A DNA stretch of 64,000 nucleotides, from positions 1,896 through 65,895 of the forward strand of contig JAAUTG010000001.1 of the NCBI GenBank assembly GCA_012031785.1, in the 5' to 3' direction. Under the pieces are notes generated by a model. It was not told the origin of the DNA. It searched no databases and saw only the letters and a program-made list of their open reading frames with translations. Numbering within the stretch: position 1 is the first letter of the stretch; the number at the start of each line of letters is the position of its first letter. The DNA is from Saprospiraceae bacterium. GTDB taxonomy: Bacteria > Bacteroidota > Bacteroidia > Chitinophagales > Saprospiraceae. The position numbers and the translations under genes were made by a program. Below are positions 32,457 to 44,715 of this stretch, one piece after another.

Positions 32457-33934
32457 TATTGGTATCCTCTATATGCGTTGTCTAGCAACATTTTACCATA
32501 AGGGTCTTCGGCTTGGGTTATCGCATTAAACGTTTGCTGCGAAACAGGCTTATTGGCAATGCGATCCAGCAATTCGATCATCTTATCCAGGCGTTTCAGC
32601 ATCTCAGGATCGCTGCCGCGCAAAACCAATGCTCCATCATGAGGAACGACAAATTCACCACGATGCACAATGCCAGCAGGTTCGGATTTCAAGCCGTGTC
32701 CCGTAAAACCACCGCTTTCAAATCCTAACAATTGGCTTGTGGTTGGTTTCTCCCATGCAAACAAGTTACGATCACCGACCTCACCACCACCATATTTCTG
32801 GAAGGAGACGCGACCAAGCGTGGCGGGTTGGCTAGCCACTGTTTGACTATCACGAATTGCGTTCTGAAGTTGCGTGTTGTAGTTCGCTGCTACATTTGAA
32901 TACGCCTTGGCTAGCGAATTGTTGTAATTGACGGTGTTCGCGTTTATCGTGGCGTTCATTCCATTGATTGCAGAGTTCATTTGGTTCTGCATTTCGTTGA
33001 CCATCGCTTGTTGGCTATTAGAAACTGCACCCAACTGAGCATTGAAATTTGCCACCATTGAACCAAATGCGTTATTCGCAGATTGAGCCATGTTGTTAAG
33101 CATCTCAGGCAATACCTGACCAAAGAAGACTTGCATATCAGCTTGCCGCCGCATTGTTTCTTGGCTGATTTGGAATTCACGCTGCCAGATTTGTTCAGCA
33201 ATAATCATTTGCTGCTGCTGGCGCATCAGTGTTGCTTCATTGATCTGCATACTGATGTCCTGCTGCAAGCGTGTCATTTCACGCTCACGCATTTGCCATT
33301 CTAGCCGCTCTTGGAACATCTGCCGATCAAATTGCATACGCTCCTGTTGCATTTGCTTATCTTCTTCAAAGTAGCGTTTATTTAGCTCAACACGCTCATC
33401 TTCCCACCCTTTTTGCTCTTGAATACGATCACGTGAGGCTTCAGAGCCTTCGCGCCGTAGATTTTCTGACACGACTGCGCGGTCACGATTACGCAACATG
33501 ATCCGACGATCACGTCCACGCGCAAATCGTAGGTTTTCATCATAATCTTCCATACTCCAGCCGAATTGAAGCTGCGCCCCAGTTTCGGAACGTGTCCAGT
33601 CCTCCATCTGCCACTGGAAACGCTTCTCACGTTGGTAATCGCCGATACGAAATTCGGTCTCTTGGCGGGCATATGACATTTGGGCTTGTTTTTCTTGTTG
33701 CCCAAACCCAAATTCTTGTTGTCGAATTTGCATATTTAGCATCGCGTCTTCGATAGCACGTGATCCAATCACACTTTGTTGTTGCCCTGTGATTGGGTTA
33801 GCAAACGAACCCCCGTAGGTAAATGCTTTCTGCATCCCAAGTTGGGATATTTGAAGCCCCATTTGCCATTCTTGCATCCCGTATTGTTGTTGATGAGCAA
33901 ATTGGGTTAATTGGGTTTTCCCCATGCCCTTCAT
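32456..33934 (-). CDS. Gln/Met/Arg-rich coiled-coil protein with tape-measure-type C-terminal motif
   Basis: ESGGFTGHGLKSEPAGIVHRGEFVVP resembles the GGxTGxG...AGxVHxGExV motif I recall from tape measure C-termini. ATGA coupling links it to the giant gene. Confidence 0.45.
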   Translation of the reverse strand: MKGMGKTQLTQFAHQQQYGMQEWQMGLQISQLGMQKAFTYGGSFANPITGQQQSVIGSRAIEDAMLNMQIRQQEFGFGQQEKQAQMSYARQETEFRIGDYQREKRFQWQMEDWTRSETGAQLQFGWSMEDYDENLRFARGRDRRIMLRNRDRAVVSENLRREGSEASRDRIQEQKGWEDERVELNKRYFEEDKQMQQERMQFDRQMFQERLEWQMREREMTRLQQDISMQINEATLMRQQQQMIIAEQIWQREFQISQETMRRQADMQVFFGQVLPEMLNNMAQSANNAFGSMVANFNAQLGAVSNSQQAMVNEMQNQMNSAINGMNATINANTVNYNNSLAKAYSNVAANYNTQLQNAIRDSQTVASQPATLGRVSFQKYGGGEVGDRNLFAWEKPTTSQLLGFESGGFTGHGLKSEPAGIVHRGEFVVPHDGALVLRGSDPEMLKRLDKMIELLDRIANKPVSQQTFNAITQAEDPYGKMLLDNAYRGYQ

Positions 33935-36900: not shown

Positions 36901-39900
36901 CGTTGCTTCAGCCGCCGATTTCCCTGTGAAAAGCTGAATAGCTTCATCTTTAGTGAGTTGGGAAACAGACTTTCCACCAAACATATCTTCACGCTGACGC
37001 GCAGTCTTTTCGTCCATCTGGGCAGTCACAGCCTGGACAGTTTCAGATAGATCAATCAGCTTCGTGACCATCTTGTGTTGCTCACGGGTCAGCTTAGTGG
37101 CTTCTGGTAGCTTTGCAATGAGCTCTTTGAATTCAGCGTTCAATTCCTTCAGCCCAGTCGCAGCAGGGAGTAGGTCTAATCCACCAGCACCTAACCCCAT
37201 AGCGGCTGCGTTTTGATTAAGGACACCCTCCGCCCCAACGCCACCCATAGCCCGCAATCCTAGAGCCATTTTCTGGTTAAGGGTCATGGATTGCTTGACG
37301 GTCATCATTGATTTTGCATGGGCTGGTGTGGCAACGCGGTCAGGCAGTTCACGGGTTGCCAGATGCAGCGTCTCAGGCGTGTAACCCGCTTCTCTGTAAA
37401 ACTCACCCGAATACGCATTGAACGCAGCCGCTAACTGGTCAATGGATTCAATTTCATCATCAGAAAATACTGAGCCAGCGTCATGCCCTGGTAAGTATGG
37501 CAGCAGGACTTCCTTTGATTTGCTAAGGAACATCCGCTCTTCGGCATTTAGAGAACCTTGCTTCGCCCGTTTTCTGAGATTTCTAAAACGATCAGATGTG
37601 CTATCAAGAAACGATTGTGCTGCTTTTGCTTGTTTGGAGGTCTGAATATTACGACCTTCAGGCGAAGCATAGGCTTCGATGTCCGTTGCTAATTCATAGG
37701 AACGTTTATCCATATCCCGATCCGCGTGGACATAGAAGGTTTTTTCTTCCTGAGCAACTGCCATCCCAGCTTGAACACCCTTGAATACAGCGTGGTAGAC
37801 TTCTCCAGCCGATGGACTTCTACCGCTACCCCTACCTGGACGCTCAGGCGGCTCAGGTGTCAAAGTTGTTTCATCGGGAGGCTCTGAAGGAGGCTCTGAA
37901 GGGGGCTCTAAGTAACGCTTTCCTTCTGTCGGATGCTTTAGTGGGCGACTTCTTTCACTACTAACGGGGCGTGAGACAATCTTTCCGCTTGCATCCCGAT
38001 CAAGGTATTGCCCTGCTTCGGTAGGAGGAATGCTGCTGTAGTCAATTGGCTCAAAACCCTCAATTGGAGTATTCCCCCGTTGCCATGCGGGAACAAAATC
38101 TTCAGGCATATTATAAGCGTGAGTACCCCGTTTCCATGCGGGGATAATATTATCGGGTATGTTATAATCTTGTGGCTTATCGTCAATTAGTTGGCTTAAT
38201 CCGACCATGCCGCCCAGGTTTAATGCCGCTTCTGGTTTGACTGGCGGGGAGGCTTCAATAATGCCATCTGGTCTAACAACCGCGCTTGGTCTTGGTGCAT
38301 TGGGTAACAGTATTTGTGGCTTAGCTGGCTGAGGCTCAACAGGTCTGAGTGTTACCAGATTTTCGGCTGGAAGAATGGGCGATGACGTACCTCCTAAATT
38401 GGCTAAAGATAACTCTCTGACAGGGGGAGATTGCTCAATTCCAACCGCCTCACCACCAGCTAGCCTTGAAATATCTAAGGTAGATTTAGTGGCTTGACTA
38501 GCTGCCCGTTGCTCTTGAATTTCTGCTGGCGTGGGTGTATATCCAACATCTGCCAGCTTTTGGTCAACGGCTATTTTGCTAATACCACCTTCTTCCCCAG
38601 CTTCAACACCACCTACGATGCCGACACGGGAAAGTAGCTGACGTGTCCCCTTGAAAAAGGAGCTAAACGCGCCAGAAATCTGCTGGGTCATAGAGGCAGA
38701 TGATCGTTCATCCACCGTCGGTGGGCGATCTAGGTACGCTACACGCATAACTTTGGCAACTTCACGCGCCATACGGGTTGCAGACTTCATAAATGGGTTG
38801 GCAGACGTTTCGATCCAATCAAACTTACTACTGCCCTCCCGCCGCATTTCAGCACGGGCATTTGCCGCACCCATAATGCCTGTGTACATAACACCGCCGC
38901 GTTCAGCATCCAAGTTGGCGTATTCCGCCGCATTGCGAACGCCCCTCATTCTGAATGAGCCAAACAGTTGTTGCATAGCGCGTCCGCGCACTGCCTCAGT
39001 CGTTTCACCCGACTGGGATGCGATAATATCCGCGTTGCGGATGTTCATTAACGCATCAGAGGTCGCTTGTACCTGGTTATACAACGCCCCGCCCTCAGCC
39101 ATGTAGCCGACATTGTTTTCAGCATCGGCATTGGATACCTCCGCCAATCTTTCCAGTGGAATAAGCTGGGCGGCAAATGATAGCGCAGATGTCCGTCGGT
39201 ACTCATCGTCGGAGGCTTCTCTAGCGGCTAGGTAATCCGCTTCTGTTTCGAAGTCACCACGTTGAGGCATTGCCGTAGTAGCTGCTGTTTCGATCATATT
39301 CTGAACAAAATCAGCATCGCTGGCAAACGTTTCATATTTCTTACTACCAGCACGTTCGCCCTCTTGGATGGTGGCATACTGGAGCGGGTTTTTGCTATCG
39401 CGCATTGGAATAGCAATGCGACCACCTTCGCGGAAGATAGCTTGCGTTGACATATCGTACATGCGTAAGAACCCTGGGTCGCCCAAAACTTCACGATCCA
39501 AGGATGATTGATACGCGCTTACTGCCTTATAAGAAGTCGCCTCTGATACGATATTTGATAAATGCGTGCCTGGTAAACCCTGCCCGCCATAAAGGTTTTT
39601 GGCAGCGACATTTTGAAGCTGTGCCATTGCCATGATCCGACGACCACGATGTTCGGCATTATACTGTTGACCAATTTGCGCGGCTGCCGCTTTCTCTTCT
39701 TCGGTATAAGCGGCGTAAAGCTGGTCATCCGTTTTATACCCTTTTTCTTGGGAATTTTTGGCAGTATCAGTTGCCATCCTGCTGGGTCTGCGCTCTGCTG
39801 CTTCCTCTACCTGCTTATACCATTCTGAAAACGGCATGTTCTTAGCAGCTTTAGCTAATTGACGGGGCGATATTCGTCGCACATTGCCGCCACGCCATTT

Positions 39901-42900
39901 ACCACGTTTGTCTGTAACCCAGTTCAAAATACCGCGTGATTCGTCCCCATCGAAGTCGCCCGCTAGAACCTGCGCGACAATCGGATTGAAGACCATATTC
40001 TTGCCAGGGTTCAGAAGCCCCTTCACAACCTGAGACTTCTCTGCGACCAAATCTTCGTAAATGCCTATTTTAAGCCCAACGTTGTTATGGAATGGCGAAA
40101 CCTCTGGGAAGCGTTTTGCGCTGAGGGTTAACTGCTCTCTTCCACGACCATTAACGATACGTCGGAGTTCTTTAGCGGCAGAGCTTTGGTCTTCCCACTG
40201 ATCCAATCCAGTCAACTCCATCAGAAATTGCTCTGACATGACTGTCATATTTTCAGGCACGCTGCCCGCGCCGTGCGCCTTGCCGCCGATATTTACAACC
40301 GAAAATCCAAGGACATCTTTCATGACTTCAGCCGATGAAAAATGTTCCCCTTGAGTTTCCAATGCGCCTTTGATCGCTTGGTCGTTCGCTAGGGCAAATT
40401 GGTGCAATTCCTCATCTGAGATTACACCCTGAGTATGAGCTTGTTTAGCGTCATGGTATTTAGCTTGGGCTTCCATTGCCTCAATAACAGATTGCCCAAC
40501 ACCGCTAACCATTTTATCGTCATCGCTGATCGTCGTGAATGAAGCCGCTATCGCCCCACCCATGATGTTAACTTGCTCACCAGATGAGGTTTGCAGCGAC
40601 ATTGCGTCGCCACGCTCCATTCCATAGGCTTTAGCAACCATTTTTCGTTGATAATCAGCACTTTCTTTGCCATACAAAGATGCAACTTCAGATTGTGCCA
40701 TTCTATAAGTATCAATATCAAATGGATTAACACTATCGCCTGTTGATAGTCTGTGCTGCTTTCCAGTAGGCGTGTCCACTGTTTGACCAGTGATACCACT
40801 CCCTTCGAAGTTACTGGCGTATGCGCGGAATGCGGTTAACGATGGATCATCCAGTTGTCCAGTTTTAGACTGGTTCATCAGTGCCTGGAAAAGTTGCGGG
40901 TTATCCTGATACATCCAAAACGCGCTCTCAGCCGTCACGCGCCCCATTGGGCGACGACCCTCCCACCGCGCCTGCTCTAACTGATTGACATTGTAAACAG
41001 CATCATTCATAGTCACATCAACATTGGTTGCCCCAACGGAGGACTTAAGACCAATACGTTTACCATCTTTGTCATATCGGAAGAATTGTGCGTCTGTAAA
41101 CATCTGAGCAGATTGCTGCGGTTTGCCAGTCACTGTTTCAGCCGTGCTGATGGTGTTAGCTGACGAACCCATCATCATTTGATGCAGGTTCGATATACGA
41201 TCCTCACCAGTGCCAGCTTGACGCTCAATCTGCTCAGTGGCTAACTTAAATGCAATTCCACGATCTGTTATGTTGCGCTGTGACATTATCTGATCGGTCA
41301 TACTATCAGCTAGCAAGCCAGTCAAGTGCTGTTCATACTCATGAACACCTACTGTTTCTTTGATCTGTTTGATTTCGCCCTGACTGTACATCCAGTCGGT
41401 TGCGGCTAAACCAAATAGGTTTGACATGACTGGTGAAATTTGCCCAGACACTTGGTTGGCATTAAGGGCTGCCATGACATGCCCAGTTTTAGTAGGATCG
41501 AATTTATCAATACCTTCAATCCCAGCCGCCCGCAAATCCGCAGGGGATAACTGGCGCAGCAAATCCATTTCATCACGCGCAACCTGTGCAATTGCTGCAT
41601 CAGATTTTTTAGCTGCGCGATTGAATTGCGCGATTTGCTTAGCGGCTTGTTTCACGGTGAAGTTCGCTTCAAACCCTTTATGGGCAAAAGTCATCATGTC
41701 TTTTGCCGATGGGAGCGCAGAAACACTTTCAACGCCCGCGCCATATTGGTCGAAATAGGCAGCGTCACGGAATTGACCTTCACCTTTGTCTTTGTATTTA
41801 TAGGCGACCTGATCCGTATATACTTGGTACTTAATCTTTTGAGCATCTTCGCCGTTTTTGGTGATGTTTTCCACGCCCTCAATGGCGACCATCGTTCCGC
41901 GTGCTTTTCGCCCTGTCATGCGCTCAAAATCAGACATTGAGCCGCCATATTTATAACCTTCGCCAATCGGGGGTAAACCGCCCTCATCCGAATCAGTGAA
42001 GAATAATTTTTCGGCTATGTCAGCGTTGGGAGCGACTACCCGTGTAAAATCACGTACCCCGTAAGTCGGTAAGGTCATGCGCTGACCTTCTGGAATGCCT
42101 AGCTTAGATGTCCTGAAGGCTGATTGCATAATAAAGCCCGTTGTCGGAGCAGATTGTCCCGTCACTGCGCCAGTTATCCCACCTTCAGTAAACTGGGACG
42201 TGAACTCAGGCAAGAGCATCCCCACCCCAGCAGCAGCGCGAACGTTTGTGCCAGAAATATCCAATTGTTGAATACGCTTGATTTTGTTGACGTAAAAGTC
42301 ATAAACGGGACTACCTTGCTCATCCCGAACAATTTGCATATTTCCTTTTTCGTCAGCTTGACGACGTATTCGCTTGGTGAAGCCCGCTTCCCCCAGCAAT
42401 CCGCGCAGTCCAAATGCGTGCTGACTATTACGGCGCATATAAATGCTTTCGCCTTTTTCACGGGCAGCATCTACCGCCGACCAAATTTGCTCATTGTTTC
42501 GTTTTTCACCGATGCCCCCAGCTTCGGCTGGCATTGATCTTCCGACAAAAAAAGATCGTGAGAGGCGACGACGCTCAGTCGGTGTATAGCCTGTCCAGTT
42601 GACGTGCATCAAGCCAAAATTCGACAGCGCATTCCAGAGATTGGGTTTTCGCCCCTCAGTGTCTGGACTTAGGCTGTTTTCAATCCCCATTTTAAGAACC
42701 TGAACGGGATTGACGATTGTACCGTCGTCTTTAACCATCGAAGGCACGATGTTTAAGCCACTGTAATTGTCCTCAGACATGACACCCCATGTGCCATACC
42801 TAGAATCATGGAATAATTTGTAATTTTCCATTGCTTGCTGACCGTCTTCAGTCCGCCGCAATCGTCCAAATTCGACATATGGAACTGAAGCCCCAGCACG

Positions 42901-44715
42901 ATCACCTTCATTTGGTAATCCAATATCGCCATATTGAACTGGCGACACAAACACACTATTGCCAAGCGATTGACGTAGATATTCAGATGCGCCCTCTAGC
43001 CCGCGCTCACTGGCGGCTTCGTCATACATCGCGGATGCACCCCGAACAGACTGACCACGACTAGTGTCCAGTCTCCGTTGCACAATCTCTGGAATGGCGG
43101 TGCTTTGGGCTTCTTCAACCACTTCCGACATTCGATCAAATCGCGCTTGGGCGCGTTCAAACGCTGATCGTATTTTAGAGGGGATGATGTGTTCTTGCGG
43201 AAGTTCAGGTGCAGCATATTGTTGCGGGAGCGGTGCTAACTGCTCCGCGCCAAGAACACGACCACTGAATGTATTTACGCCAGCAGCGTTCATGGAGCCT
43301 TCGTGAGTAGCAGGCTCTCCGCTACTAATTTTGGCATTTACATATGCCTGAGCGCGTTTTGTGCGTTCAATTTGTTCATTTTGAACATTTTGAACACTTT
43401 CACGCTTCAATTTATTGGCGCTCTCTACGGAAATATGACCTTCGCCGTCATCCATATAGAAGCCAGTCTTTGAGATGAAACGCCCGTACTGCCAGTCCCG
43501 CCTATTTTTAACCTTAGCGGTTCGTCCTTCAATGCCGCCCCTAAAAAATTCCTGCGACTTAACAATATCCCCTTCAGGGGAAATGAGTTGGACGATCTGA
43601 GATGGGGCTAACCCAGATTTCGTATCCCAACTTGAAAAATCACCAGCATCTACCGTCGTCGTGAATGTCGTTGCTGGGCTGCCGTCTTCCGTTGCGATGA
43701 GGTGCTGTAAATGAAATTCTTGTCCAGTTTCACGATGCCGTGCCATGAGCAGTGTTTTTTGATGTACACGCTCATATGGTGTCGTTTCCTTTTGCGATTG
43801 GTCTTGGACTTTTTTATACCTGTTTTCGCGATAGATTTCATAATCGCCTAACCCGTACTTTTCTTGGATTTGGCTATCTGAGAGTTTATTAGCATCACTA
43901 TCAAGAACTTGCTCCTCTACCACTGAGTAAATTTGGCGAACAGTATATTGGCTTTTATAGTCATCCCATGATGGGGCAGAATAATAAGCTGCCCCCATGT
44001 TGATATGCTCAAGACCAGCCGACTGGATCAAAATGTCCCGATCTGCTTGAGGAACATCCATCCCAGCTATTTTGCGATGCGTTCCAACAGGGTCTTTCGC
44101 TGCCGCTTCCTGTAGCCCGCCCAGGGTGGTAGTTAGCCCGCCTAAATGCAGTTCCCGTACACCTGAACGCGAAACGCCAAGTTGATTAATCGGGATTTCG
44201 TCCCGCTCAGCACCAGCCGCCATCGCTTCGTAAGCGGCTCTTGTATCTTTTCGCCTTTGATAATCGGCAGAGGGTGATAGGTATCCATAAGGCTCTTGCT
44301 GCGCTGCGTCAGTTGCTGGCTGAACAGGAGACGATAGCTTTGGAGTAAAGGATTGCGACGAAAATGATGGGGAATCATTCCCTGGATAAGGGGGAGTAAT
44401 CGGATCAGGGACGATTGAGTTTGCCGCTAATAATGGAATGCTTGGAGCATCGCTAGCAGATTGAGAAAATGCCGCAATTGATGTCAGGTTTGGTAAACCC
44501 GCCTCATCAACTGTCTGGCTGATAGACTGGTCAGTGACACCAGACCAATCAAACCTAGCCGACACTTCTGGTAATGCGCGGGATTTACGTTGCGCTGGCG
44601 TTTTACAGTTGTCGCAATAGACCCTATTGCCATGTCCAGTTACGGGCGCACCGCAATTTTTACATTGCCTCATTTTGAAGTTTTCGCGCCTCCCACTCAG
44701 CTTGACGCGCAGCAT
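33931..44715 (-). CDS. giant tape-measure-slot protein (3,594 codons): N-terminal zinc ribbon, about 2,270-aa cargo region with a DFDGD double-psi beta-barrel polymerase-like signature, Pro-rich linker, about 1,300-aa TMP-like C-terminus
   Basis: Uninterrupted ORF immediately downstream of the G/GT chaperones. CKNCGAPVTGHGNRVYCDNCK. RFPEVSPFHNNVGLKIGIY...NMVFNPIVAQVLAGDFDGDESRGILNWV (DFDGD = 39943-39957). EPPSEPPSEPP linker near 37830-37915. Gly/Ala/Met-rich hydrophobic C-terminal third with FANxAxGMG repeats. An alternative start is ATG 44673. Confidence 0.85.
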   Translation of the reverse strand: MLRVKLSGRRENFKMRQCKNCGAPVTGHGNRVYCDNCKTPAQRKSRALPEVSARFDWSGVTDQSISQTVDEAGLPNLTSIAAFSQSASDAPSIPLLAANSIVPDPITPPYPGNDSPSFSSQSFTPKLSSPVQPATDAAQQEPYGYLSPSADYQRRKDTRAAYEAMAAGAERDEIPINQLGVSRSGVRELHLGGLTTTLGGLQEAAAKDPVGTHRKIAGMDVPQADRDILIQSAGLEHINMGAAYYSAPSWDDYKSQYTVRQIYSVVEEQVLDSDANKLSDSQIQEKYGLGDYEIYRENRYKKVQDQSQKETTPYERVHQKTLLMARHRETGQEFHLQHLIATEDGSPATTFTTTVDAGDFSSWDTKSGLAPSQIVQLISPEGDIVKSQEFFRGGIEGRTAKVKNRRDWQYGRFISKTGFYMDDGEGHISVESANKLKRESVQNVQNEQIERTKRAQAYVNAKISSGEPATHEGSMNAAGVNTFSGRVLGAEQLAPLPQQYAAPELPQEHIIPSKIRSAFERAQARFDRMSEVVEEAQSTAIPEIVQRRLDTSRGQSVRGASAMYDEAASERGLEGASEYLRQSLGNSVFVSPVQYGDIGLPNEGDRAGASVPYVEFGRLRRTEDGQQAMENYKLFHDSRYGTWGVMSEDNYSGLNIVPSMVKDDGTIVNPVQVLKMGIENSLSPDTEGRKPNLWNALSNFGLMHVNWTGYTPTERRRLSRSFFVGRSMPAEAGGIGEKRNNEQIWSAVDAAREKGESIYMRRNSQHAFGLRGLLGEAGFTKRIRRQADEKGNMQIVRDEQGSPVYDFYVNKIKRIQQLDISGTNVRAAAGVGMLLPEFTSQFTEGGITGAVTGQSAPTTGFIMQSAFRTSKLGIPEGQRMTLPTYGVRDFTRVVAPNADIAEKLFFTDSDEGGLPPIGEGYKYGGSMSDFERMTGRKARGTMVAIEGVENITKNGEDAQKIKYQVYTDQVAYKYKDKGEGQFRDAAYFDQYGAGVESVSALPSAKDMMTFAHKGFEANFTVKQAAKQIAQFNRAAKKSDAAIAQVARDEMDLLRQLSPADLRAAGIEGIDKFDPTKTGHVMAALNANQVSGQISPVMSNLFGLAATDWMYSQGEIKQIKETVGVHEYEQHLTGLLADSMTDQIMSQRNITDRGIAFKLATEQIERQAGTGEDRISNLHQMMMGSSANTISTAETVTGKPQQSAQMFTDAQFFRYDKDGKRIGLKSSVGATNVDVTMNDAVYNVNQLEQARWEGRRPMGRVTAESAFWMYQDNPQLFQALMNQSKTGQLDDPSLTAFRAYASNFEGSGITGQTVDTPTGKQHRLSTGDSVNPFDIDTYRMAQSEVASLYGKESADYQRKMVAKAYGMERGDAMSLQTSSGEQVNIMGGAIAASFTTISDDDKMVSGVGQSVIEAMEAQAKYHDAKQAHTQGVISDEELHQFALANDQAIKGALETQGEHFSSAEVMKDVLGFSVVNIGGKAHGAGSVPENMTVMSEQFLMELTGLDQWEDQSSAAKELRRIVNGRGREQLTLSAKRFPEVSPFHNNVGLKIGIYEDLVAEKSQVVKGLLNPGKNMVFNPIVAQVLAGDFDGDESRGILNWVTDKRGKWRGGNVRRISPRQLAKAAKNMPFSEWYKQVEEAAERRPSRMATDTAKNSQEKGYKTDDQLYAAYTEEEKAAAAQIGQQYNAEHRGRRIMAMAQLQNVAAKNLYGGQGLPGTHLSNIVSEATSYKAVSAYQSSLDREVLGDPGFLRMYDMSTQAIFREGGRIAIPMRDSKNPLQYATIQEGERAGSKKYETFASDADFVQNMIETAATTAMPQRGDFETEADYLAAREASDDEYRRTSALSFAAQLIPLERLAEVSNADAENNVGYMAEGGALYNQVQATSDALMNIRNADIIASQSGETTEAVRGRAMQQLFGSFRMRGVRNAAEYANLDAERGGVMYTGIMGAANARAEMRREGSSKFDWIETSANPFMKSATRMAREVAKVMRVAYLDRPPTVDERSSASMTQQISGAFSSFFKGTRQLLSRVGIVGGVEAGEEGGISKIAVDQKLADVGYTPTPAEIQEQRAASQATKSTLDISRLAGGEAVGIEQSPPVRELSLANLGGTSSPILPAENLVTLRPVEPQPAKPQILLPNAPRPSAVVRPDGIIEASPPVKPEAALNLGGMVGLSQLIDDKPQDYNIPDNIIPAWKRGTHAYNMPEDFVPAWQRGNTPIEGFEPIDYSSIPPTEAGQYLDRDASGKIVSRPVSSERSRPLKHPTEGKRYLEPPSEPPSEPPDETTLTPEPPERPGRGSGRSPSAGEVYHAVFKGVQAGMAVAQEEKTFYVHADRDMDKRSYELATDIEAYASPEGRNIQTSKQAKAAQSFLDSTSDRFRNLRKRAKQGSLNAEERMFLSKSKEVLLPYLPGHDAGSVFSDDEIESIDQLAAAFNAYSGEFYREAGYTPETLHLATRELPDRVATPAHAKSMMTVKQSMTLNQKMALGLRAMGGVGAEGVLNQNAAAMGLGAGGLDLLPAATGLKELNAEFKELIAKLPEATKLTREQHKMVTKLIDLSETVQAVTAQMDEKTARQREDMFGGKSVSQLTKDEAIQLFTGKSAAEATPEDLAKSRDFKDWYTLYGREMNADGKSVRGVAGAIAPYQAALADADIRMDLGQLTQESPFGERAFRGVVGAYYAGSAARHLYQQTVGESLKSIREFEGTEDIYAMLGIGERGDIRKQRFAAERAEMFQARAAAEMYLPIMQGMSDLLGSADAGRIVEGAKRSTAIFGMGLMGSQMLSQSGFLGAGKTFGQASMVAAAGSAGLSAGNLVYNQLSGASEFGGLSEMEMIEEAFTQSGNLSWMATDIGLAASNRFLGTDFELTGVRSQGVKDRVREEYERKYHLLDDDIEFAEQNDVSTVEIGEYRNRLRTTLAAPRQESSSYVNYARNATLIGERTGLGKEGIANYQGAMSSLYAGGNTREAMGIEIMEIDRLSPYIGSSAFDKLAPSITQEVSNYQRMAGIGSNLRQFIDDPDKVKEIIDNLLPHAFGDYVSDSAIRQAGRVVNQGMNITSRSALDLSSSVGVMSALSGKPESIQDLMTEVVANRSSIYYAQGIDSQGMQPLLDATTQMGLSVSEAQANNLRSLSQLEMRYGNTNDRLFRQVAGLSGVQGEFAVQAAGIGAGMGYNFSALDIPTSFTNLNEAQSQAALQLTQSLQLNTQSQSFSDLLGSRSGMVGGLFGRQLQMGTGSILDASRYYWTGSGSAEEMATMNQARDRMFNMTDQQAQRAASVTAMTERYGLGYGGRGMTAFDDLVDDPLRFERASNYMGLYEQLAIEPTERDMAAAARKSQRGEQYSRAYRAFSTTAYEMGLDGQTSLQIAENLTRRGIVNQRDVGLASGFANTAFGMGVDASDAMAVGGMLVNQGLTSQPQAQAVSTFANLAYGMGMGGQEAMAFAGGMAKQYSSPLQMQSFANMSNLGFNMGLSSQQSLAFGQMVTDAGYTPFQQSRISSLSSTLMGMGVEGTGALAFGFGNADMSQLGMVQLQRFLGGDQMMFSRAFQGGLEGLDSLGLSLDNIRMPSGRKLAPTMDYRTGLSASKTSSLMLSTTHPIR

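Follow-up and report, generated by a model that had tools for sequence, protein, structure and literature searches.

The closest described counterpart of the locus studied here is gp96 of the Thermus phage P23-45 (Oshimavirus), a tape-measure protein of 5002 amino acids in which residues 327-1124 are an active, crystallised two-barrel RNA polymerase (RNAP) carrying 779-DFDGD-783 (Chaban et al. 2024, PMC10770324). This RNAP was first recognised solely through its DFDGD motif, it uses a short, repeated promoter to transcribe pre-early genes, and gp96 also has a metallopeptidase domain (PMC10770324). The filter used in the same work to survey two-barrel RNAPs was [RK]xPx{20,100}DxDxD (PMC10770324, Supplementary Data 4). 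So far, a virion RNAP fused to a tape-measure protein has been described in this one narrow group of Thermus phages only. Here we have analysed a stretch of 64,000 nucleotides (the window) of contig JAAUTG010000001.1 (GenBank assembly GCA_012031785.1, positions 1,896 to 65,895), deposited in a metagenome-assembled genome (MAG) of a Saprospiraceae bacterium. A giant open reading frame (ORF) of 3594 amino acids in the tape-measure slot contains a single DFDGD motif, located in a conserved module some 1000 residues long, within the protein's N-terminal third (residues about 794-1773). We put the probability that this module is a single-chain two-barrel RNAP embedded in a tape-measure protein at about 0.65.

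Both gp96 and the protein described here are giant tape-measure-slot proteins of long-tailed phages, and both have an identical DFDGD following an [RK]xP element. In both, the enzyme-like module is N-terminal with the tape-measure part after it, and ordinary sequence searches reveal neither as an RNAP. The two proteins differ in that no homology between them is detectable (no tblastn match, hhalign probability 1.1%), that the module here follows a variable extension of about 500-800 residues where the active fragment of gp96 spans 327-1124, and that the spacing from R to D is 52 residues against 38. Furthermore, the tape-measure protein here is divided between two ORFs, and the DNA comes from a metagenome bin that is not of Thermus (the Saprospiraceae MAG). 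P23-45 has in addition a non-virion RNAP, gp64, whereas no gp64-like second RNAP was seen in the window. If the proposal holds, the giant protein would, judged from its sequence, work like gp96 and yet stand outside the gp96 family. An earlier note on this DNA was aware of no described tape-measure protein with such a barrel, which is outdated by the publication of gp96 (PMC10770324). In the literature up to mid-2026 we found no tape-measure-RNAP fusion beyond gp96, and this specific lineage appears to be undescribed.

The giant ORF corresponds to the NCBI entry NJL73673.1 (3580 amino acids, starting from M15), annotated as 'MAG: hypothetical protein [Saprospiraceae bacterium]'. The peptide in which the earlier note had read a polymerase signature was recovered exactly, as the minus strand of 39919-40113 translates to RFPEVSPFHNNVGLKIGIYEDLVAEKSQVVKGLLNPGKNMVFNPIVAQVLAGDFDGDESRGILNW, residues 1535-1599, and DFDGD lies at nucleotides 39943-39957 as claimed; the plus strand of the same interval is interrupted by stop codons. 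The spacing of 52 residues (R1535 to D1587) was likewise as noted; it is closer to that of enzymes of the QDE-1 type than to the 35 residues of beta-prime.

Given the composition of the protein itself, DFDGD is expected 0.0019 times per protein by chance. The pentapeptide occurs once across all six frames of the window, and it is the sole D[FY..]D[G..]D-type motif among window ORFs of at least 150 amino acids. The published two-barrel filter matches the protein at R1535...D1587. The loose filter matched a second time in the same protein, at KHP...DRDMD (residues 2332-2336, nucleotides 37708-37722), and this match was dropped, being in a proline-rich part that is not conserved and most likely due to chance. 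The filter alone is therefore not specific in very long proteins.

Homologues were sought with phmmer in an exhaustive search of 1.84 billion representative proteins, using residues 990-2189 as the query. Besides the protein itself, three relatives only were found (E-values 2e-22 to 3.5e-18, 26-29% identity), all of them from Logan assemblies: P0002 with 3597, P0003 with 4304 and P0004 with 2959 amino acids. The matches were centred on residues about 1182-1765, around the motif. BLASTP gave extents on the giant ORF of 794-1759 for P0003, 912-1754 for P0004, and 566-951 plus 1213-1773 for P0002. The N-terminal 500-800 residues differ between the family members, and the conserved module begins after them. 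DFD[G/A]D is kept in all four members (positions 1587, 1208, 1335 and 1091), hence in each of the three relatives of the protein, and it forms the densest cluster of invariant columns of the 852-residue core alignment (four of seven columns), IGQxYN being the second. P1537 of the RxP element and the pair N1569-P1570 are identical in all four members.

The motif could in principle be a functionless chance occurrence, since short motifs recur in very long proteins and the DRDMD match is an instance of this. We regard this explanation as having next to no credibility, both because of the low number of occurrences expected per protein and because the motif is invariant, within the densest invariant cluster of the module, among proteins of 26-29% identity.

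No further family members were obtained when viral, metagenome and genome contigs were scanned with three different alignments, and none of 50,697 phage records was matched by blastn and tblastn queries taken from the motif region, from the C-terminal third or from the putative terminase. Three additional protein-homologue searches were also without a match, but they missed the query's own entry as well and are accordingly weak as negatives. The first two of these were possibly saturated by RpoC proteins sharing DFDGD; the third, run with a motif-free query, was also empty.

The placement of the protein in the tape-measure slot is well supported, by the gene order in four phages and by a C-terminal motif. 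In all four phages the order is tail tube, two overlapping small ORFs and the giant gene. The tail tube protein of the window was compared with a PF18906 Phage_tube_2 protein, which is encoded upstream of the homologue P0005 in a related phage. In L009 and L010, too, the giant gene follows two small ORFs with these sizes and this overlap, and the pair of 138 and 127 amino acids is consistent with frameshift-linked tail assembly chaperones. The ORF of 492 amino acids following the giant one carries the tape-measure-type motif GGFTGHG..AGIVHRGEFVVP and matches the tape-measure PHROG families phrog_339, phrog_24 and phrog_21845. The same C-terminal motif is found in P0004 (residues 2876-2905), where it likewise matches tape-measure PHROGs. 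There is thus good support for the giant protein being a tail tape measure, written as two ORFs here, and for the phage being siphovirus-like.

The second of these two ORFs is in the -1 frame, and the protein is a single polypeptide in all three homologues. The split at 33931-33934 reflects either a genuine division into translationally coupled ORFs or an indel in the assembly.

Further candidate polymerase elements were judged by visual comparison with E. coli beta-prime and with the published structure-based alignments (PMC10770324, Supplementary Fig. 7). Residues 1475-1599 present the order of the first double-psi beta-barrel (DPBB-A), with a first strand containing G-[KR], the RxP element, an h-x-h-x-h-E strand resembling GIQAFE of beta-prime, and the loop. 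At +95 residues from DFDGD, GQxYN..R (1682-1690) resembles the 'AGQ...' bridge helices of gp96 and gp64, and at +150 residues S.A...YQxxLD (1724-1740) resembles YQIITD of gp96, IQVAVD of gp64 and GNLVD of QDE-1. The two stretches are similar to the elements of gp96 and gp64 in their order as well as their spacing, which is inside the range of gp64 and QDE-1. Judged from these resemblances, residues 1681-1699 and 1723-1740 may correspond to the bridge helix and the trigger loop, and residues 967-980 might, speculatively, be the loop of the second barrel (DPBB-B). A different position for DPBB-B, at about 905-935, was rejected; its resemblance to the beta-subunit IQPGDKMAGRHGNKG is confined to P0004, and the basic residues there lack conservation.

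The following results fail to support an RNAP or speak against it. The arginine of RxP is present in three of the four members, P0004 having G-Y-P, and the published filter correspondingly selects three of the four. The candidate DPBB-B at 967-980 lies 620 residues upstream of the loop and is without statistical support, and no obvious counterpart of the canonical 'KG' lysine is seen in the 350 residues upstream. Neither Pfam nor PHROGs has a family covering the motif region. A Pfam search with a short segment of each member gave no RNAP up to an E-value of 10, RNA_pol_Rpb1 included, and NCBIfam gave no RNAP match for the whole protein or for the short segments of the members. Nothing was found in the PDB, either by phmmer with a query of 1200 amino acids or by hmmsearch with profiles of 852 and 137 positions, in a copy whose content of gp96 chains was unchecked. 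AlphaFold2 modelled the 852-residue core from the alignment of four sequences with a predicted local distance difference test (pLDDT) of 41, falling to about 26 at the motif, and a predicted template modelling (pTM) score of 0.29; a crop of 306 residues with five sequences reached a pLDDT of 34. The best match of the core model to the PDB by Foldseek had an E-value of 0.66 and a template modelling score of about 0.09, and none was significant.

Profile alignment with hhalign against the gp96 family placed DFDGD in register, but covered 24-33 columns only, at a probability of 1% and a P-value of 0.05; the score was 26, versus 15 for the reversed decoy. Against single gp96, gp64, gp66, RpoB and RpoC, hhalign gave no significant similarity, and decoys scored alike. 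In a local alignment to E. coli beta-prime (RpoC, NADFDGD), NPIVAQVLAGDFDGDE aligned with HPLVCAAYNADFDGDQ with the same spacing from P to D, at z=6.3 against shuffles, which speaks for an RNAP. This fell to z=0.3 when the pentapeptide was masked, which likewise counts against the RNAP at first sight. The masked control was also carried out among proven two-barrel RNAPs (gp96, gp64, gp66 and beta-prime), where it mostly fails as well (z from -0.9 to 2.2), and failure of the test is therefore no evidence against membership.

About 40 of the 50 top Foldseek matches in the PDB were beta-prime chains of bacterial RNAP, all non-significant and obtained with a low-confidence model. The dominance of beta-prime in this list is suggestive, but may reflect the shared letters ADFDGD. 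The corresponding search of BFVD returned helical, tape-measure-like noise only. In other respects the protein differs from E. coli RpoC, as it is a single chain, has no Pfam RNA_pol_Rpb1 match and shows no similarity outside the motif.

Taken against the nucleotide polymerase active site proposed in the earlier note, the motif is real, it is strongly constrained, it is located in a tape-measure slot and it passes the published filter, while the barrel fold did not emerge from the searches: the profile searches with Pfam and HMMER gave no RNAP match for the motif region, AlphaFold2 and Foldseek gave models of low confidence and no significant structural match, and phi14:2 gp66 had no similarity by hhalign or tblastn. 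The pattern R-x-P...NP...DFDGD...W from the same note held for DFDGD and for P1537. It did not hold for the trailing tryptophan, where the four members have W, W, Y and A, nor fully for the arginine. An invariant NP does exist, at N1569-P1570, but it is not the NPIV directly before DFDGD. The note had further seen no other RNAP in the window, and this was borne out, since no further ORF with D[FY]DxD or [RK]xP..DxDxD was found; the 64 kb scanned fall short of the 71-kb contig by about 7 kb.

The module could instead be another enzymatic or structural domain, such as an envelope hydrolase, a nuclease or a loop binding Ca2+ or Mg2+, in which DFDGD forms a metal site that merely looks like that of an RNAP. 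There is neither profile nor fold evidence for a barrel, no second barrel is clear, and the similarity to RNAPs vanishes once the pentapeptide is masked. Tape-measure proteins moreover often carry enzymes, the metallopeptidase domain of gp96 being an example. We nevertheless hold this explanation to be rather unlikely. Pfam, PHROGs and NCBIfam gave no match to a hydrolase, nuclease or Ca-binding family either, and the motif is unrepeated and differs from DxDxDG. The layout of an RNAP is matched by the [RK]xP element, by the beta-strand-like h-x-h-x-h-E stretch and by the invariants GQ... and YQxxLD further downstream, and the only meaning characterised so far, among known proteins, for DFDGD within a tape measure is that of an RNAP. 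A repeat of the Ca-binding DxDxDG or thrombospondin type was rejected for its wrong pattern and for the single copy.

A two-barrel polymerase that is not a DNA-dependent transcriptase was also considered, for instance an RNA-dependent RNA polymerase like QDE-1, or a primase-like or PolD-like enzyme. The spacing from R to D is nearer to the QDE-1 type not only than to beta-prime but also than to gp96, gp64 and gp66 (38-39), and QDE-1 is reported to use templates of two kinds. This reading is very improbable in our view: the window already has a DnaG-type primase together with a DnaB-like helicase, the characterised two-barrel enzymes of phage virions are all DNA-dependent RNAPs, and PolD has NCDGD and not the DFDGD form (PMC10770324, Supplementary Fig. 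7).

For the favoured reading, a DNA-dependent RNAP in a tape-measure protein, the mechanism can be proposed by analogy with P23-45 gp96. The tail tube would contain the giant protein, which at infection would be ejected first, into the cell envelope and the cytoplasm. In the cytoplasm the polymerase module would transcribe the first-entering phage genes without the host RNA polymerase, with D1587, D1589 and D1591 holding the catalytic Mg2+.

Two other phage enzymes invite comparison. The virion RNAP of phage N4, gp50, is a protein of about 3500 amino acids, which is injected with the DNA and transcribes early genes; N4 is a podovirus, and its virion RNAP is a T7-like right-hand polymerase; fusions related to N4 have been mentioned as well. 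The giant protein is similar in size to gp50, with a putative two-barrel instead of a right-hand polymerase fold, and no similarity between the two was found. Phage phi14:2, which is crAss-like, has in gp66 (PDB 6VR4) a very large virion protein with a DFDxD loop after RxP, and the host phylum Bacteroidota would be common to both phages if the binning of the MAG reflects the host. It differs in its podovirus-like particle, in not being a tape-measure protein, in the motif DFDID, and in having no sequence similarity (tblastn, hhalign). A crAss-like or N4-like identity of the phage was rejected, as its structural module is siphovirus-like (tail tube, tape measure).

If the module is an RNAP, it would represent a second lineage, unrelated in sequence to the first, from a different environment and probably a different host phylum. 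This would suggest that the use of the tape-measure protein to link DNA ejection with early transcription that does not depend on the host is a general solution and not an oddity of thermophiles, and with an independent origin the fusion would be a recurrent strategy of long-tailed phages. The module would also be a new, very divergent branch of the two-barrel superfamily, informative on the minimal needs for function and for passage through the tail tube. Motif scanning of giant tail proteins could then reveal such enzymes where profile searches cannot.

A more far-reaching version can be formulated, in which the module belongs to an unrecognised two-barrel family that is invisible to profiles, was embedded in the tape-measure protein independently of the Thermus case, is the only RNAP of the phage and uses phage-specific signals. 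The repeated cassettes at 57.4-59.8 kb would be candidates for such signals, as would the twelve dispersed TTTCAC-N-GTGAAA palindromes, which could act as hairpins in the manner of N4 promoters. This version is distinctly doubtful.

Table 1. Position of the features of the giant ORF and of its surroundings in the window (nucleotide coordinates; single numbers are the positions of repeat copies).
Feature	Residues or size	Position	Strand	Sequence or basis
Giant tape-measure-slot ORF	3594 aa	33931..44715	minus	ORF listing and translation
Conserved module, putative polymerase module	about 794-1773	39397..42336	minus	phmmer and BLASTP
DFDGD, candidate Mg2+-binding catalytic loop	1587-1591	39943..39957	minus	conserved in homologues
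R1535-F-P1537, '[RK]xP' element, 49 residues before DFDGD	1535-1537	40105..40113	minus	published filter
Proposed DPBB-A-like segment	1475-1600	39916..40293	minus	NIGGKAHG...PENM...RFP...VGLKIGIYE...NPG...DFDGD...ILNW
Bridge-helix-like stretch	1681-1699	39619..39675	minus	IGQQYNAEHRGRRIMAMAQ; G, Y, N, R invariant
Trigger-loop-like stretch	1723-1740	39496..39549	minus	VSEATSYKAVSAYQSSLD; S, A, Q1736, D1740 invariant
Candidate DPBB-B loop	967-980	41776..41817	minus	TDQVAYKYKDKGEG; K973, K977 invariant; like beta-subunit GDKxxxRHGxKG
CxxC-x12-CxxC zinc-ribbon-like N-terminal element	18-37	44605..44664	minus	weak Pfam DUF7563/DZR matches
ORF overlapping the stop of the giant ORF (ATGA, 33931-33934)	492 aa	32456..33934	minus	homology with the relatives' C-terminal ends
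Two small ORFs, 52-nt overlap, gpG/gpGT chaperone-like layout	138 aa and 127 aa	44660..45408	minus	ORF listing
Tail tube protein	526 aa	45426..47006	minus	37% identity, E 7e-90, to PF18906 Phage_tube_2 protein
TTTCAC-N-GTGAAA sites	13 nt	5002, 7941, 16861, 20659, 24809, 29776, 36919, 41650, 46205, 55002, 58175, 61523
Cassette, 47-nt element	47 nt	57400, 58588, 59618
Cassette, 60-nt element	60 nt	57706, 58613, 59273		internal inverted repeat CTGCC..GGCAG
Cassette, near-identical ribosome-binding site and start		57769, 58674, 59719		TTAGTCATGGGAGGATTTTATCATGAC

The zinc-ribbon-like element at the N-terminus of the giant protein was not seen by eye at the N-termini of the three homologues. The minus-strand block at 20-57 kb, to which the giant ORF belongs, is the structural module, with a portal (phrog_64), a major head protein (phrog_1357) and tail and fibre-like proteins. 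In the plus-strand block at 1-20 kb there are genes for a DnaG-like primase, for two helicases, one of them DnaB-like, and for a methyltransferase, for Rad52 and for RNase H. The contig of 71,201 bp has replication and structural modules and is without cellular genes, although deposited in a Saprospiraceae MAG. It reads as a complete or nearly complete phage genome, and was probably binned with its host or mis-binned.

Two kinds of DNA repeats were noticed in the window. When one mismatch is allowed, the palindromic 13-mer TTTCAC-N-GTGAAA is present 12 times, where 0.2 occurrences are expected and none of 100 shuffles reaches this number. Neighbouring sites are separated by roughly 5 kb and mostly fall within coding regions of both gene modules, and their flanks are not conserved; a dimeric phage protein could bind there, or the palindrome could serve as a small hairpin signal. 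Between 57400 and 59750, three repeated cassettes are located upstream of small plus-strand genes, each comprising the elements given in Table 1, and these are candidate regulatory units of early genes.

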